Source: Pseudomonadota bacterium (GTDB taxonomy: Bacteria; Bdellovibrionota; Bdellovibrionia; Bdellovibrionales; Bdellovibrionaceae). From it: a DNA stretch of 64,000 bases. Location of the stretch: the NCBI GenBank assembly GCA_041178425.1, contig JBEGVH010000006.1, positions 219,643 to 283,642 of the forward strand, given 5' to 3'. The notes under the pieces were generated by a model. That model saw only the letters and a list, made by a program, of their open reading frames with translations. It made no database searches and had not been told where the DNA came from. Positions 1 to 5,626 of this stretch are shown piece after piece. Each line of letters starts with the position of its first letter. The stretch's first letter is position 1. Both the position numbers and the translations under genes were made by a program.

Positions 1-261
1 AGCGTTGTTGATAACAATATCAACTTTTCCTTCACACGCTTTTATAAGAGCATTTGCTGTTTCTTGTTTTGAAACATCTCCGGCCACTGTGATGATGGCA
101 TATTCTTTTAATTGTGATTTTAATTCAGACAAGCGAGACTCATTCCAATCACTAGCAATAATTTTGGCGCCTTCTTTGGCGAGTCGATGCACACAAGCTT
201 TGCCTATACCTGCGCCTGCACCAGTGACGATAACGGTTTTATTTTGAAATCTATTATCCAT
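1..261 (-). CDS. SDR family oxidoreductase (N-terminal part; runs off the window)
   Basis: Read manually on the minus strand: MDNRFQNKTVIVTGAGAGIGKA...DIVINNA, with TGxxxGIG and NNA motifs and an AAGGAG RBS. Not in the ORF track because it is truncated by the window edge. Confidence 0.9.
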   Translation of the reverse strand, partial: MDNRFQNKTVIVTGAGAGIGKACVHRLAKEGAKIIASDWNESRLSELKSQLKEYAIITVAGDVSKQETANALIKACEGKVDIVINNA

Positions 262-357
262 TAAAATCTCCTTGAAGATAAACACTTGGAGATCGTTGCA
301 TCTGATTTGTTGTGTGAATATGATAAAAATTAGTTTAAAAACATAGATAAATTAAAT

Positions 358-380
358 AAAAAGAGAGGATTGCTCCTCCC
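358..380 (-). terminator. Intrinsic terminator after small peptide gene copy 1
   Basis: Minus strand GGGAGGA-GCAA-TCCTCTC followed by TTTTT. Confidence 0.8.
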
Positions 381-387
381 TAAACCA

Positions 388-477
388 TTAGAGTAAATCC
401 CTTAACGATCTTAAAATCATTGCTAGTAATTTTAAAATCAGGATAATAGCCTCTAACAATTTTAGAACCTTGAACAT
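388..477 (-). CDS. 29-aa hydrophobic/amphipathic peptide, candidate type I toxin (copy 1, intact)
   Basis: ATG..TAA encodes MFKVLKLLEAIILILKLLAMILRSLRDLL; AGGAAGG upstream; own terminator; two paralogous copies in the window. Confidence 0.75.
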   Translation of the reverse strand: MFKVLKLLEAIILILKLLAMILRSLRDLL

Positions 478-524
478 CCTTGCCTTCCTGAAAGATTGAC
501 CTTCATTGGTCAGGAGCTCACGGT

Positions 525-552
525 TTGTATCTTTAAATGTTTATGGTAAAAT
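525..552 (+). promoter_or_regulatory. sigma70-like promoter for candidate antitoxin sRNA
   Basis: TTGTAT-N16-TAAAAT with an extended -10 TGn; overlapped by the palindrome GGTAAAA-TAT-TTTTACC (545-561). Confidence 0.55.
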
Positions 553-559
553 ATTTTTA

Positions 560-630
560 CCCTAAGCTACGGTTTGCTAGACCGTATATTTTAGAACCTT
601 GAAAACCCCTCATACTACGAGGGGTTTTTT
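560..630 (+). ncRNA. Candidate antisense sRNA (type I antitoxin)
   Basis: 5' hairpin 568-586; ATTTTAGAACCTTGAA (588-603) identical to 459-474 and so antisense to codons 2-6 of the peptide mRNA; terminator hairpin plus T6 (602-630). Confidence 0.55.
602..630. terminator. Intrinsic terminator, possibly bidirectional
   Basis: AAAACCCCTC-ATACTAC-GAGGGGTTTT followed by TT. Confidence 0.8.
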
Positions 631-697
631 ATTTGTCCTGATTTCAAAATGAATACGTACAATTTTTTTGAAATGAATTGATAAAAATCTGAAGATT

Positions 698-958
698 TTA
701 TTTTTTATCTTCTGAGTTACCCCAGCGCCACTTAAGTGGCTCTCCATAGCGATACATAATGTAAAAATTTGCAATGGTGATGGCAACGATATAACCATAC
801 CATATGTAAAGAACTGTTTTACTCATCGGGTGGATTAAAATAAGTGGAGCAACGATAGAAGTGGAATATCCCAGAGTAATAAGCCAGCCCTGCCAAGTAC
901 AGGGAGTCCAACCAATTCCATATTTTTTTCTTTTAAACCAAATGATTTTTTCACTCAT
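698..958 (-). CDS. Small membrane protein (2 TM)
   Basis: 86 aa; WFKRKKYGIGWTPCTWQGW motif followed by two hydrophobic segments. Confidence 0.75.
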   Translation of the reverse strand: MSEKIIWFKRKKYGIGWTPCTWQGWLITLGYSTSIVAPLILIHPMSKTVLYIWYGYIVAITIANFYIMYRYGEPLKWRWGNSEDKK

Positions 959-1042
959 AGTTTTATTATAAATCGAACTTGAACTTCCTGATTCATTTGT
1001 TAGACTTTTTTAATATTTAATTTGAATAAGAAGGTAGTAGCA

Positions 1043-1786
1043 ATGGCCAAAACAATTTTAATTCCAATTCCATCTAATGATTTTGATCCCACAGAATGTG
1101 CTGTTCCTTGGAAAATTCTTGTAGAGAATGGAGTTCAAGTTAAATTTGCAACTCCAAATGGTGAAGTTGCTCAATGTGATCAAAGAATGCTTCACGGGTA
1201 TGATCTTGGACCACTTTCTCCTGTACTCTCTGCTGACAAGAACGGCAAAATGGCATATTTTGAACTTGAAAAAAATCATGAATTTCAACATCCCCTTGCT
1301 TGGGAGAATATAGTACCAGAGCAATTCGATGGAATTATTCTTCCAGGAGGACACGCTCAGGGAATGAAAGAATATCTTGAATCTGAACAACTAAAAAAAT
1401 GCGTGAGTGTTTTTTTTCAATCCAATAAACCTGTGGGAGCCATTTGCCACGGAGTTGTCTTGGCCGCACGGAGTTCTATAAACGGAGTGAGTATTTTAAA
1501 GGGACGCAAAACAACGGCTCTTCTTTCGAGTCAAGAAATGCTGGCGTGGGGCTTAACCTGTTTGTGGTTGGGAAGTTATTATCGAACTTATTCTCAAACG
1601 GTAGAAGCTGAAGTGAAGTCTTGTTTAAATTCTCCAGATGATTTTTTGAAAGGACCGGTGCCCATCAAGAGAGATAACATGAATGATTTAGAAAGTGGTT
1701 TTACAGTTCGCGATGGAAATTATCTATCTGCTCGCTGGCCGGGTGATGCTCATCGATTCGGAATTGAGTTTTTAAAAATGCTTTAA
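1043..1786 (+). CDS. DJ-1/PfpI family protein
   Basis: FDPTE, LPGGH and GAICHG (nucleophile Cys) motifs; start moved to ATG 1043. Confidence 0.9.
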   Translation: MAKTILIPIPSNDFDPTECAVPWKILVENGVQVKFATPNGEVAQCDQRMLHGYDLGPLSPVLSADKNGKMAYFELEKNHEFQHPLAWENIVPEQFDGIILPGGHAQGMKEYLESEQLKKCVSVFFQSNKPVGAICHGVVLAARSSINGVSILKGRKTTALLSSQEMLAWGLTCLWLGSYYRTYSQTVEAEVKSCLNSPDDFLKGPVPIKRDNMNDLESGFTVRDGNYLSARWPGDAHRFGIEFLKML

Positions 1787-1870
1787 AAATAATCTTTAAA
1801 TAATTTCAAAATTATTGCTGGTAATTTAAAGATTAGGATAAATCCATGGAATTATCTTAAGAAAATTCAT
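1783..1870 (-). pseudogene. Frameshifted small peptide gene (copy 3)
   Basis: MNFLKII then, after one extra base, HGFILIFKLPAIILKLFKDYF*; aligns with copy 1; lacks the conserved leader and terminator. Confidence 0.55.
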
Positions 1871-2350
1871 TTAAAAACTCACACTGCAAGTTTCTCGAAT
1901 TAAAAATCGTTTGTAAATATCACATGAGTATATGCTGATCACAGTAAGTTCATTTTTATTAATTTCAACTAATTCTTTAAATGAACTTAAAATATGCCCT
2001 CCACATTGACGGTCGTCACTCCCTGTTCCATCAGTCTTGTAAGTAATCATACCATTTTCAACATAGCGATCTTCGTCTTGAAAAAATGAAACAACATAAG
2101 GGTTGGATTCTCTATATTGGGGAAATCTATTATCGTTATTTCCATCTACTTCGATAATAAATGCACTACCCATATTATCGGCAACAATTCTGCAATGACC
2201 TTGCTTAACGATTTGGTTGTTCTGAGTTACTTTAAACTCACCAGGACGATTTAAAAGTCTAATTATTTCTGTTGGGAGATTGAAATTATTTGCAAGAGTA
2301 TCTCTAGGTATCATATAGATCGACAGGAGCGATAAAAGTAATAGTTTCAT
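1871..2350 (-). CDS. Secreted hypothetical protein
   Basis: 159-aa ORF with N-terminal signal peptide and 4 Cys. Confidence 0.7.
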   Translation of the reverse strand: MKLLLLSLLSIYMIPRDTLANNFNLPTEIIRLLNRPGEFKVTQNNQIVKQGHCRIVADNMGSAFIIEVDGNNDNRFPQYRESNPYVVSFFQDEDRYVENGMITYKTDGTGSDDRQCGGHILSSFKELVEINKNELTVISIYSCDIYKRFLIRETCSVSF

Positions 2351-2497
2351 CTTAAATCCTTTTAAAAATATTTTTTAAAAGATAACATTAAATTTAAGTG
2401 GTTTATCTATTTAATTACTTATAGGGTAAAGATTACACTTTATTGCTTTGATACCCTTCATTTTATGAAATTTTTCTGAAATGAAATCTGCAAGCGA

Positions 2498-3559
2498 TTA
2501 CTCACACTGCTCAGGATTTTTAAAAGCTGCGCGAATTTGTTTGCTGGTTTTTAGTGATAATGAATCGACTGTCCAATCTTCGTAATCATGTTGATAAAGC
2601 TTTTCGTAAATGAAAGCTAAAGTTCCCACGCGAATTCTGTTTCCAATAATTCCTTGAGTGAGGTATCCCCAAAAATGATACTGAAGCCCCGGGATATCAT
2701 CTCCGTCGACAAGCTTTTCCATTTTATAAGAAACGACTGATGAAGTTGTGCGATTGACAGTTAGAGCGTCCCCGCTGAAAATCCAAGGGATGACTCCCAG
2801 GGCGACAATGGGATCACCATAAATCTCAAGTGCCTTGTGAAAAAGTTTTTCAGGTGTAACTGAAAAATTTTCTTGTTGTAATAACCACAAAAATAGTGGA
2901 GAAGAAAAATGATTATACTTTTGCGACTCATAAATAAATTGATTGAACATTTTATGATCAGGATTTCCAACTCCAAGTTTAAAAAGATTCTTCTCTTTTA
3001 CTCCCTCTTTTTTCTGCATAATGGGAAGACCGTTGCTATCGAGAGAAGGAAAAGAATAGTTAGCAACAGCAGGCATATGCTCTTCGATTTGTTCAATTAG
3101 GTTAGCTTCATTTCTTAATTGAAATTTAGGCTCTTCGCCATTGAGATACGAAATGTGGCGCATTCTTGCGAGGTGGATAAAAGATGAAAGATAATTCTCT
3201 GTAGGATCTTTCAGCTCTCTTTTGGGATTGCCATAAAGAATAAAGGCATTTTGCAAATAGTATTCAGAGCGATCCATTGGAAAGCCGGGTAGACCTGTGA
3301 TTTTTTCAATAGGTTTCGGCAGCGACAATCCAGCGGGGATTGGATAGGCATCAACCCAAGGATCAATATCTTTTCTTAGAATATCTAAAATCTCGACTCT
3401 AATTTTGTGAAGTGATTTATCAGGATATGTTTTTTTAATTGATTGTGAAACCTGGCAAGCAAACTTATCCATGCGCTCTTTTGTGAAATAAATATCAAGC
3501 GCAAAAGAAGAATGACTTGCGAGGGCAGTTAATATTAAAATGATTGTTTTTTTCAACAT
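2498..3559 (-). CDS. Secreted hypothetical protein
   Basis: 353-aa ORF, signal peptide ending SFA; YHFWG motif near the C-terminus. Confidence 0.75.
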   Translation of the reverse strand: MLKKTIILILTALASHSSFALDIYFTKERMDKFACQVSQSIKKTYPDKSLHKIRVEILDILRKDIDPWVDAYPIPAGLSLPKPIEKITGLPGFPMDRSEYYLQNAFILYGNPKRELKDPTENYLSSFIHLARMRHISYLNGEEPKFQLRNEANLIEQIEEHMPAVANYSFPSLDSNGLPIMQKKEGVKEKNLFKLGVGNPDHKMFNQFIYESQKYNHFSSPLFLWLLQQENFSVTPEKLFHKALEIYGDPIVALGVIPWIFSGDALTVNRTTSSVVSYKMEKLVDGDDIPGLQYHFWGYLTQGIIGNRIRVGTLAFIYEKLYQHDYEDWTVDSLSLKTSKQIRAAFKNPEQCE

Positions 3560-3653
3560 GGGAAAAGAATAGCAAGATTTACAATAGTCGAAGCACGGAT
3601 TGAAAAAGCTTCATAGGTGAAAAAAATATGTCTAACGTTTTGACAGTTAAAAT

Positions 3654-3676
3654 AAAAAGGGAGGATTTCTCCTCCC
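3654..3676 (-). terminator. Intrinsic terminator after peptide gene copy 2
   Basis: Minus strand GGGAGGA-GAAA-TCCTCCC-TTTTT; homologous to 358-380. Confidence 0.8.
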
Positions 3677-3683
3677 CCAAATC

Positions 3684-3773
3684 TTAAAGATACTTCCTTA
3701 ACGACTCTAAAATTATTGTTAGTAATTTTAGAATCAGGATTAGTAGCTTTAATGATTTTAAAACCTTGAGAAT
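3684..3773 (-). pseudogene. Small peptide gene copy 2 (ATT at the start position; possibly inactivated or weakly translated)
   Basis: (I)LKVLKSLKLLILILKLLTIILESLRKYL*, same 90-nt length as copy 1; GGAGG RBS; conserved leader. Confidence 0.65.
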
Positions 3774-3818
3774 CCTTGCCTCCAAAAGATCGCCTTCATT
3801 GGCGCGGAAGCTCTCGGC

Positions 3819-4319
3819 TTGAAAAAATATCCCTCAATAGAATTCAGCATTGATCTAAATCCAGCTAAAATTGATCTAAAATCAGAAGGGATTGATATTG
3901 CCATTAGACCTGGAATTCAAAAAGATTCTGGTCTATTTATTCGGAAATTAGATGAAATTCAACCCGCGCTTTTTGCCTCATTAGAATATATAAAAAAAAA
4001 TGGTCGGCCTAAAAATTATGAAGATTTGAAAAAACATAAATTAATTTCAACCAAGATAATAAATCTCGATGGCGAATCTTATAAGCCTGCCATTCTTGCT
4101 AATAGTATGTCTTTTGTAAAACAAGTCACCCTTGAGAGTGCAGCCATAGGATGCTTGGCCGAAGAATTTATTATGAATGAAAAAAAATCAGGTAAACTTG
4201 TTCGCTTATTTCCAGAAAAAAATTTACCTAAATCTCCCATCTATTTGGTTTTTACCAATAAAAAATTAGCCAAGCGGGTTTCTTTACTGGTTCAAGAAAT
4301 AATTGAATTTAAGGAATAA
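3819..4319 (+). pseudogene. LysR-type regulator, substrate-binding domain only (5'-truncated)
   Basis: KKYPSIEF...IDLKSEGIDIAIR and GKLVRLFPE are CrgA-like effector-domain motifs; no HTH and no RBS; begins where copy-2 leader homology ends. Confidence 0.75.
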
Positions 4320-4553
4320 GCAATTCAAATGGTTTTTGGCTTTCCCAAAGCCCCCCCGAAAGCCGGTCGCAAAAGGCCTCCAGAGGGAGCGTTTAGCCTC
4401 TGGATCCAGTTTTTTTGTGGGGCAAATATTATGTTGAGGTGGCGGAAGGGCTAATCACCAGGAAAACAACCGATTTTGACACTTTTTGACAATAGGTGGC
4501 TAAAAACTGGCTTCACCAATCTTCGGGCCGCATTACCCGCCAGCAAAGTGGGC

Positions 4554-4713
4554 TCGAAGCGTGGGGAGGGAAATTCCTGAGGAGGGAGCAACTGAGGGCT
4601 CCGGCGAACGTGATGTGTTGGTCAGCCCCGAAGGGGCCTGACCACGCCGGCGTAGGCCATGGAATGGCCGCACCGAAGTGCTACCTCCTCAGGAATTTCC
4701 TCCCACCCTTCGA
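4554..4713. repeat. Structured intergenic element, copy A (87-nt core 4592-4678 inside a ~37-bp imperfect inverted repeat)
   Basis: Core near-identical to 34639-34725; arms TCGAAGCGTGGGGAGGGAAATTCCTGAGGAGG.. / ..CCTCCTCAGGAATTTCCTCCCACCCTTCGA. Confidence 0.85.
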
Positions 4714-4780
4714 TTTCACGAAGGACCCCACAGAGGATGGATAGGAATTGACACCGGTCAAAAAGTAGCGAAAGTCGTCT

Positions 4781-5626
4781 GTGATGAACAATACTGATTT
4801 TCGCATCGGCATACTTAGCTTCAATCACCCAGAAATCACTGAGCGCGCCATTCAGTCGTGCTTGGATGCCGTTCCATCGGCCCCTATCACCTTATTGCAC
4901 AATGGGAGTGAGCCGCGCTGGATTGAACGACTCCAAAAAAATTTTCCTGCTATTGATCATGTTATTTTAAGTGAAAACGGAGGCTTCACAGGTGGCGCCA
5001 ACGCACTCATTGAACGCGTTATCTCTCAATCGGAGTGGTGTTTATTTTTAACTAACGACGTTCAACTATTAAAAGCACAGATACCCGATCGCATTGGCTT
5101 AGTGGCTCCCCTTATTCATCGCAGAAAAAAAGGGCTTATTGATTCCATGGGTGCTCTCTTCTTTCCACACTCAGGCCATTTAGAACATTGCCGAAGCCAC
5201 GAACGTTTTATTTATCTTCCACAAAAGGCTCTACGCTATGTGCCTGGCACGGCCTTTTGGATTCATCGTGAGGTCTATCAAAAAGTTGGCGGCTTTGATG
5301 TTAGTCTCGACACTTACTGGGAAGACGTTGATTACTCTCAAAAAATTCAGCAACAGGAACAAGCCCTTTATTATTGTGAAAAAACTGAACTTCTTCACAG
5401 CGTGGGAAAAACCTGTCATAAAATCAAAAAATACACAGCTTATCTTTTTGTTAGAAACAAGTATTATGTTTCATTGAGGTATTTAAAAAAACCATTTGAT
5501 CGAGGTCTATTTCGGTTTTGGTTTTGGATGAGGTGGCTGACTGAGACCCTAAATGTAGCCTTTCGTGGAAACAAAGAGGTCTTAGCCATTAAGCTTCAGA
5601 TCGCTAAAGACCTCTTGTTAAAATAA
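4781..5626 (+). CDS. Glycosyltransferase family 2
   Basis: NGS, ENGGFTGGAN, LTND and GGFD...YWEDVD motifs. Confidence 0.85.
   Translation: MMNNTDFRIGILSFNHPEITERAIQSCLDAVPSAPITLLHNGSEPRWIERLQKNFPAIDHVILSENGGFTGGANALIERVISQSEWCLFLTNDVQLLKAQIPDRIGLVAPLIHRRKKGLIDSMGALFFPHSGHLEHCRSHERFIYLPQKALRYVPGTAFWIHREVYQKVGGFDVSLDTYWEDVDYSQKIQQQEQALYYCEKTELLHSVGKTCHKIKKYTAYLFVRNKYYVSLRYLKKPFDRGLFRFWFWMRWLTETLNVAFRGNKEVLAIKLQIAKDLLLK

Follow-up and report, generated by a model that had tools for sequence, protein, structure and literature searches.

Can a short divergent RNA silence the gene of a 29-amino-acid (aa) membrane peptide by pairing inside its coding region, and do the two form a type I toxin-antitoxin (TA) module? 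The question is raised by positions 358–630 of a 64,000-nucleotide (nt) stretch of DNA from a Bdellovibrionaceae bacterium (GenBank assembly GCA_041178425.1, contig JBEGVH010000006.1, positions 219,643–283,642 of the forward strand; hereafter the window). An initial annotation, made from the letters alone, had placed there a peptide gene on the minus strand and a small RNA (sRNA) unit on the plus strand. Comparison with related loci suggests that the locus probably belongs to an undescribed type I TA family, in which translation of a toxic membrane peptide would be repressed by pairing of the sRNA at two sites of its mRNA. The elements of the locus are as follows (ORF, open reading frame; mRNA positions are counted from the start codon).

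356–381, minus strand: intrinsic terminator of the peptide mRNA, with a GCAA (GNRA) loop, stem 381–362 and U tract, kept in the family alignment
388–477, minus strand: ORF of the 29-aa amphipathic peptide, the predicted toxin, MFKVLKLLEAIILILKLLAMILRSLRDLL, from the ORF call
398–444, minus strand: predicted long hairpin within the coding region, from the mRNA fold and the family consensus fold
420–426, minus strand: predicted target site 2, a 7-nt loop at mRNA nt 52–58 (codons 18–20) that complements the sRNA loop
459–474, minus strand: target site 1, mRNA +4 to +19 (codons 2–7), which complements the sRNA seed (16-nt repeat, covariation)
483–489, minus strand: Shine-Dalgarno (SD) sequence AGGAAGG, family consensus GGAGG
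498–511, minus strand: leader hairpin with a conserved AAUGAA-type loop and a covarying 4-bp stem, from the family comparison
512–525, minus strand: 5′ leader arm, predicted from the mRNA fold to base-pair with the start codon and the codons just after it
525–552, plus strand: predicted sRNA promoter, with −35 TTGTAT, a 16-nt spacer and extended −10 TG-TAAAAT
559–630, plus strand: predicted antitoxin sRNA of ∼72 nt (hairpin, single-stranded seed, terminator), its start placed by −10 spacing
568–586, plus strand: predicted sRNA 5′ hairpin, with the 7-nt recognition loop at 574–580
588–603, plus strand: 16-nt sRNA seed, exact repeat of 459–474
about 601–630, plus strand: sRNA intrinsic terminator with a plus-strand T tract, from the terminator scan and family comparison
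665–677, no strand assigned: variant of a conserved palindrome, TTTC-N6-GAA, beyond the sRNA terminator (family comparison; the window copy has T for C)

The locus is above chance and recurs as one module

The ORF at 388–477 with its own GNRA-loop terminator was recovered by the ORF call and the terminator scan, and both the hairpin at 568–586 and the terminator of the plus-strand unit were located, as first annotated. The 16-mer shared by 459–474 and 588–603, also reported there, is a maximal exact repeat, and the 3.06-Mb genome has no further copy of it even when one mismatch is allowed. Repeats of 16 nt are common by themselves, with 68 such pairs lying 16–200 nt apart in the same genome. 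The window sRNA folds better than 200/200 shuffled sequences (z −5.7), as does the peptide mRNA (200/200, z −5.3). The ORF and the divergent ∼72-nt unit recur together in Bacteriovoracaceae, where 37 distinct intact modules were found and nine more were added later. The sample comprised 46 distinct sRNA copies, 40 with an adjacent intact ORF, which became 37 modules after merging those with identical target, seed and loop. By RNA folding z-scores and by conservation with covarying sites in relatives, the module is above chance.

The sigma70-like promoter assigned to 525–552 is present in the sequence: its −10 is extended, and its −35 is weak, agreeing at only 3/6 positions, which is why the promoter scanner did not list it. 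Within the family the extended −10 (TGnTAnnnT) is present in 37/37 modules, and TTG at the 16-nt spacer in 35/37.

The sRNA seed covaries with the first codons of the adjacent gene

In 36/37 modules the seed and the ORF beside it agree over 12–19 nt, with 21 different target 14-mers, and its family-wide complement spans about +4 to +22. The seed duplex of cognate partners had a mean energy of −22.5 kcal/mol vs. −11.4 kcal/mol for non-cognate partners, and 0/20000 permutations were as low. Across the core (+8 to +18), 385/396 positions are identical, 8 are G-U compatible, 1 is a reverse mismatch and 2 are transversions (locus L160 excluded); by inspection, the internal G-U cases amount to about six separate events. 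Reverse mismatches are frequent at +4 (28) and +6 (11), where the seed enters the A tract before the terminator. The mean predicted unpaired probability of the seed is 0.82 across the family. The covariation of the seed with the 5′ codons of each peptide, which the initial annotation had proposed as a check, is found across the family modules.

A second, loop-loop contact is predicted at codons 18–20

This site was missing from the initial annotation. The 7-nt mRNA loop is predicted to be unpaired in 37/37 modules (p at least 0.93), and the sRNA loop is its exact complement in 35/37 modules, which carry three loop sequences. A tree from which the mRNA target sites and the sRNA loop and seed had been left out requires seven changes in the C/U state of the loop (bootstrap 6–7; starred branches force 2–4), and the changes are mirrored in both RNAs. 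Because most of the mRNA loop had been specified in the initial search patterns, loci from a BLAST search with the gene alone were tested. Of the 19 matches in 16 regions, 6 were known modules, 4 lacked an intact ORF and 9 were new modules. In 9/9 of the latter both sites match, as judged by pattern for 7 and by eye for 2; a fourth loop sequence occurs in two of the nine. Two modules depart from the rule: one copy in L155, and L160, a chimera with the ORF of one type beside the sRNA of another.

Pairing between sRNA and mRNA at both coding-region sites is strongly supported because both sites covary. These comparative data likewise support the proposal that, in a family without a name, a divergent sRNA pairs with the first codons of a gene for a small hydrophobic peptide.

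Predicted structures suggest how translation would be blocked

The four stem pairs of the leader hairpin are kept in 36/36 modules in which the motif was located (37 examined). The start AUG is mostly paired in 37/37 predicted mRNA folds, whereas the SD sequence is only partly paired. Pairing of the leader arm with the start region gave −14.7 kcal/mol for cognate vs. −12.6 kcal/mol for non-cognate partners (1/20000 permutations as low), which suggests that the two covary weakly. If the mRNA begins at the arm, its leader is ∼50 nt long. On the sRNA side, the closing pair of the 5′ hairpin, in a hand-specified structure, is C-G in 16/37 and A-U in 14/37 modules, a compensatory change.

From these features the following course may be proposed. 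In the folded peptide mRNA the 5′ arm would shield the start codon, and a long hairpin in the coding region would expose the 7-nt loop. The loop of the sRNA hairpin would dock on that loop in a kissing contact, and the single-stranded seed would then pair with codons 2–7 within the ribosome footprint and block initiation, perhaps followed by RNase III cleavage. The location of the seed complement within the five-codon window (PMC9486967) points to repression of peptide translation. Loss or out-titration of the sRNA would allow the amphipathic helix of 29 aa to enter the inner membrane, which it would likely depolarize, and to arrest growth as TisB does.

A leader ORF like mok of hok/Sok or ldr/Rdl was rejected because the frame of the leader ATG varies among modules (frames 0/1/2 in 14/11/8 modules; no ATG in 4/37). 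An inverted repeat at 413–446/633–666 (74%) was set aside as chance, since it is not seen in the flanks of homologues. No Rfam match reached the gathering score in window positions 250–4800, and only tRNAs did so in 10 homologous loci.

The peptide is conserved and resembles TisB below the cut-off

Family peptides are 27–30 aa long and start with ATG in 36/37 cases and GTG in 1/37; SD sequence, start and stop are conserved. Over the 37 modules pS was 0.56 and pN 0.22 (pN/pS about 0.39), a pattern which indicates that the peptide is under purifying selection. One family member was modelled as a single helix (pLDDT 94), and the charges of the window peptide cluster towards one side.

TisB is the commonest Pfam match (16/37 members, best E 0.013) and the sole NCBIfam match (9/37 members, best E 0.0036), in both cases below the cut-off; the window peptide itself scored 11.7 bits against the TisB profile (PF13939/TIGR04459), short of the cut-off of 25. 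By profile offset, so that the numbering is inferred, K16 (present in 36/37) and E9 align with TisB K12 and D5, and K12 is essential in TisB (PMC11449926). The residue at the Q19 position of TisB, in the same inferred numbering, is not conserved. The residue profile of the 37 peptides (positions 1–29) has no PXXXG motif of Fst toxins, and a Protein Data Bank search returned nothing meaningful.

Unguarded peptide genes are mostly damaged

Among the peptide copies without an adjacent cognate sRNA, 7/8 informative ones are damaged: two further copies in the window (see below), three collapsed copies (two at L093, one at L152), the frameshifted L147 and the split L181. L136 was excluded from this count as it sits at a contig end. 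The L181 copy is interrupted between leader and SD by a ∼1.3-kb element (L181:154–1451) with 15-bp inverted ends and no ORF longer than 150 aa.

At the collapsed loci the body of the ORF runs into the sRNA terminator at the seed, a junction as would be expected from recombination between the seed and target repeats. Because these direct repeats lie ∼130 bp apart, recombination can delete the start codon, leader, sRNA promoter and sRNA hairpin at once. Conversely, six sRNA copies have no adjacent intact ORF, one of them by clean loss of the coding region.

Weighing the interpretations

Several observations count against a type I TA module with two-site pairing. Only 23/37 sRNAs have their cognate target in first rank, and one L155 copy (2839–2925) has a mismatched loop. 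Related modules are not independent, and the mismatch counts include relatives. The sRNA loop is predicted to be partly closed by two extra weak pairs (mean unpaired probability 0.59), so that the 7-bp kiss requires their opening; unguided RNAalifold recovered only the terminator and not the sRNA 5′ hairpin; and folding does not favour either strand of the sRNA, the plus strand being more stable in 17/37 modules. No toxin promoter was found on inspection of the aligned flanks of family loci. As for the peptide, the hydrophobic moment of the window copy is not significant (173/2000 shuffles as high), the sub-cut-off TisB scores may reflect composition, and L160 has an intact ORF and SD sequence, with no cognate sRNA found in a 99%-complete genome.

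The last of these bears on a reading which accepts the pairing but takes the peptide to be a small membrane regulator without toxicity, acting for instance on a transporter or sensor and kept under sRNA control. The toxicity of the peptide is a prediction, the TisB match stays below the cut-off without the Q19 position, and the intact ORF of L160 lacks a cognate sRNA. Yet scattered multi-copy modules with private seeds and no conserved partner gene fit addiction better, as do the damage to 7/8 unguarded copies and the sRNAs left without a peptide. We infer that the peptide is toxic, and consider a non-toxic regulator unlikely.

Slightly less probable again is a long toxin mRNA whose start lies past the sRNA terminator, close to the palindrome. 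In that case its leader would overlap the whole sRNA, a cis-antisense RNA as in hok/Sok and ldr/Rdl, and the coding-region sites would be a second contact. Such an mRNA would account for the lack of a visible toxin promoter between leader and sRNA, where the arm starts right at the sRNA −35, and for a conserved motif that keeps a constant distance beyond the sRNA: TTTC-N6-GAA lies 31–36 nt past the sRNA terminator in 34/46 sRNA copies (shuffle rate 0.0016). The alignment profile, however, has no −10 hexamer conserved at promoter spacing from this motif, and a fully overlapping antisense RNA would have no need of the strict covariation and G-U bias seen at the coding-region sites.

That the repeats reflect local duplication or gene conversion at the DNA level, with no RNA function, is very improbable. 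Close direct repeats do recombine, as in the three collapsed loci, and 68 other 16-nt pairs exist in the genome; but the 7-nt loop, which in our judgement is short for conversion, tracks in 44/46 modules, core mismatches are G-U biased 8:1, and promoter, compensatory stem and terminator are conserved. Activation of the peptide gene by an sRNA that displaces the 5′ arm from the start codon is the least credible reading: the sites of arm and seed overlap in codons 2–4, where the two compete, but the seed would itself cover +4 to +22, where sRNA binding represses (five-codon window, PMC9486967), and the copies without an sRNA are the damaged ones.

The TTTC-N6-GAA palindrome is unlike a direct repeat found ahead of lexA and recA in the same genomes. 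The latter, TACGY-N6-TACGY, stands before 5/5 lexA and 4/5 recA genes (L216–L219, L222–L226) and is a candidate LexA box. It lies near 0/46 modules, and LexA control of the toxin gene was rejected.

Relation to known type I systems

The initial annotation had likened the locus to tisB/IstR, shoB/OhsC and zor/Orz. The comparison holds for layout only, because the antitoxins of tisB/IstR-1, shoB/OhsC and zor/Orz, like that of dinQ/AgrB, pair in the 5′ untranslated region (UTR) and not at the start or coding sequence (PMC4147584, PMC8594479). With tisB/IstR-1 the module shares the divergent layout, a short partial complement, a ∼29-aa hydrophobic peptide and a structured leader. It differs in that both sites lie in the coding region (about +4 to +22 and nt 52–58) and not at a standby site of the 5′ UTR. 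The genes are divergent in all intact modules, and whether the transcripts overlap depends on the start of the toxin mRNA. TisB is reported in Enterobacteriaceae only (PMC11449926; further background in PMC8309996), and, as judged by the place of pairing, the module is not a TisB/IstR member despite its tisB layout.

Single traits recall other systems. In par/Fst (pAD1 RNA I/RNA II), a kissing contact is followed by pairing across direct repeats near the start (PMC7472228), but the two Fst genes converge on a shared terminator, through which their RNAs kiss, whereas here the genes are divergent, with separate terminators and no PXXXG, and the kiss would join the sRNA 5′ hairpin to a coding-region hairpin. 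In aapA/IsoA of Helicobacter, loop-loop contacts set cognate specificity among copies and the peptide has 30 aa; IsoA, in contrast, is a cis-antisense RNA that overlaps the mRNA and forms a full duplex with its 5′ end (PMC5416894). Sib has two recognition domains, one of them in the coding sequence (PMC4147584), but overlaps the entire ibs ORF. RalA has a 16-nt complement within the ralR coding region (PMC4041452), but the RalR toxin is a DNase, and RalA depends on Hfq.

In the accessible literature, which excludes subscription papers, no type I system from Bdellovibrionota or Bacteriovorax was found. In the available supplements of a 2010 survey, B. bacteriovorus HD100 is entered with 0 known type I loci and Bacteriovorax is absent (PMC2887945), and the accessible text and searchable supplements of T1TAdb do not name the Bdellovibrio-group genera searched. 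On balance it appears reasonably likely that these modules are founders of a new type I TA family, which would seem to be the first reported in predatory bacteria. Such a family would combine (i) a TisB-like toxin outside Enterobacteriaceae; (ii) a divergent antitoxin that reads the coding region only, by kiss and seed; and (iii) a seed/target repeat that offers a one-step route of self-deletion.

The 46 natural cognate pairs have two short, swappable recognition sites, and with them specificity, cross-talk and co-evolution become directly testable; they may also serve as a set of orthogonal RNA switches. As the peptide gene must encode both amino acids and RNA sites, toxin and antitoxin would co-evolve inside the coding region. 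The collapsed loci reveal a route of module loss. Whether a TisB-like peptide takes part in dormancy during the prey-free phase of these predators is a testable question, the link being speculation.

Distribution and genomic context

Protein-level searches with one or two peptides, including the Atlas, returned no relatives, although relatives exist; they missed them, the G292 genome among them, because such searches are insensitive at this peptide length. A DNA pattern of the peptide core matched at least 120 metagenome loci, and 6/119 loci examined (of 121) are true homologues. With a longer pattern, 21 of 23 matches in GTDB fell in Bacteriovoracaceae or Bacteriovoracales, and the remaining two, in other phyla, were rejected as they disagree with the family profile. 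The matches L003 and C11 were also placed outside the family.

Across the phylum 13/401 genomes match: 11/100 Bacteriovoracaceae, the window genome and G292. In the order of the window genome a long match occurs in just 2/384 genomes. In the main genus 16/29 genomes have a match to the peptide gene; a single genome can have as many as six, and some of the matches lie in tandem. Tandem arrays at L233:490–1180 and L232 have ∼370–400-nt spacing and an own seed per unit, and the L233 units also differ in loop.

Profile search of 1.84 billion proteins gave seven matches, all family-like (two named hypothetical, five unnamed). In P0001, P0002, P0003 and P0005 gene callers had stretched the peptide upstream to 76–88 aa, through the antisense of the sRNA; from this over-extension, public annotations of the peptide family are likely mis-called. 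Four viral pattern scans gave 0, 0, 1 (unrelated) and 0 matches, a plasmid search gave no match to the module, and phage matches were limited to a 36-nt stretch at the terminator.

Flanking genes are unrelated from locus to locus (65/104 flanking ORFs scanned), and an RNA-guided protein system was rejected, no conserved neighbour being found among those scanned. A tRNA lies within the locus in 9/42 loci, tRNA-His in seven of them. The loci with tRNA-His within ∼1.5 kb of the module are L070, L093, L146, L155, L159, L162 and L167, a possible insertion hot spot. From this distribution we infer that the module is mobile, native to Bacteriovoracaceae and horizontally acquired in the window genome. 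Contigs of other freshwater and estuary runs have letters identical to those of the peptide-copy region of the window, and on one contig (run X5) the identical sRNA precedes another match resembling the peptide, an order that a tandem array would give.

Further copies and the low-GC stretch of the window

The window carries two further, damaged peptide copies.

3653–3821, minus strand: second copy by homology (coding sequence 3684–3773, 62% identical), with terminator and leader, ATT for ATG and no sRNA
1783–1870, minus strand: frameshifted third peptide remnant, weak (nhmmer E 0.28), without leader or sRNA

The window seed could still pair with the second copy (−17.3 vs. −20.6 kcal/mol), whereas the loop could not. 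The region of the second copy is present with the same letters in contigs of two other runs. Upstream of it lies a fragment of a LysR substrate-binding domain (3819–4319), with no DNA-binding domain detected, fused where the promoter of the second copy's sRNA would sit.

All three peptide copies lie in a stretch of ∼35% GC, the genome having 44%. A 150-bp direct repeat of 98% identity (window 4308–4457 and G000:C6:217018–217168) brackets this lower-GC stretch of ∼7 kb; similar sequence occurs on several G001 contigs, and the repeats may be island ends or a small mobile element. At 4560–4740 the window has a GC-rich element with a long inverted repeat, REP- or MITE-like (4441–4760 folds at −134 kcal/mol), whose core was found at five other sites of the genome.
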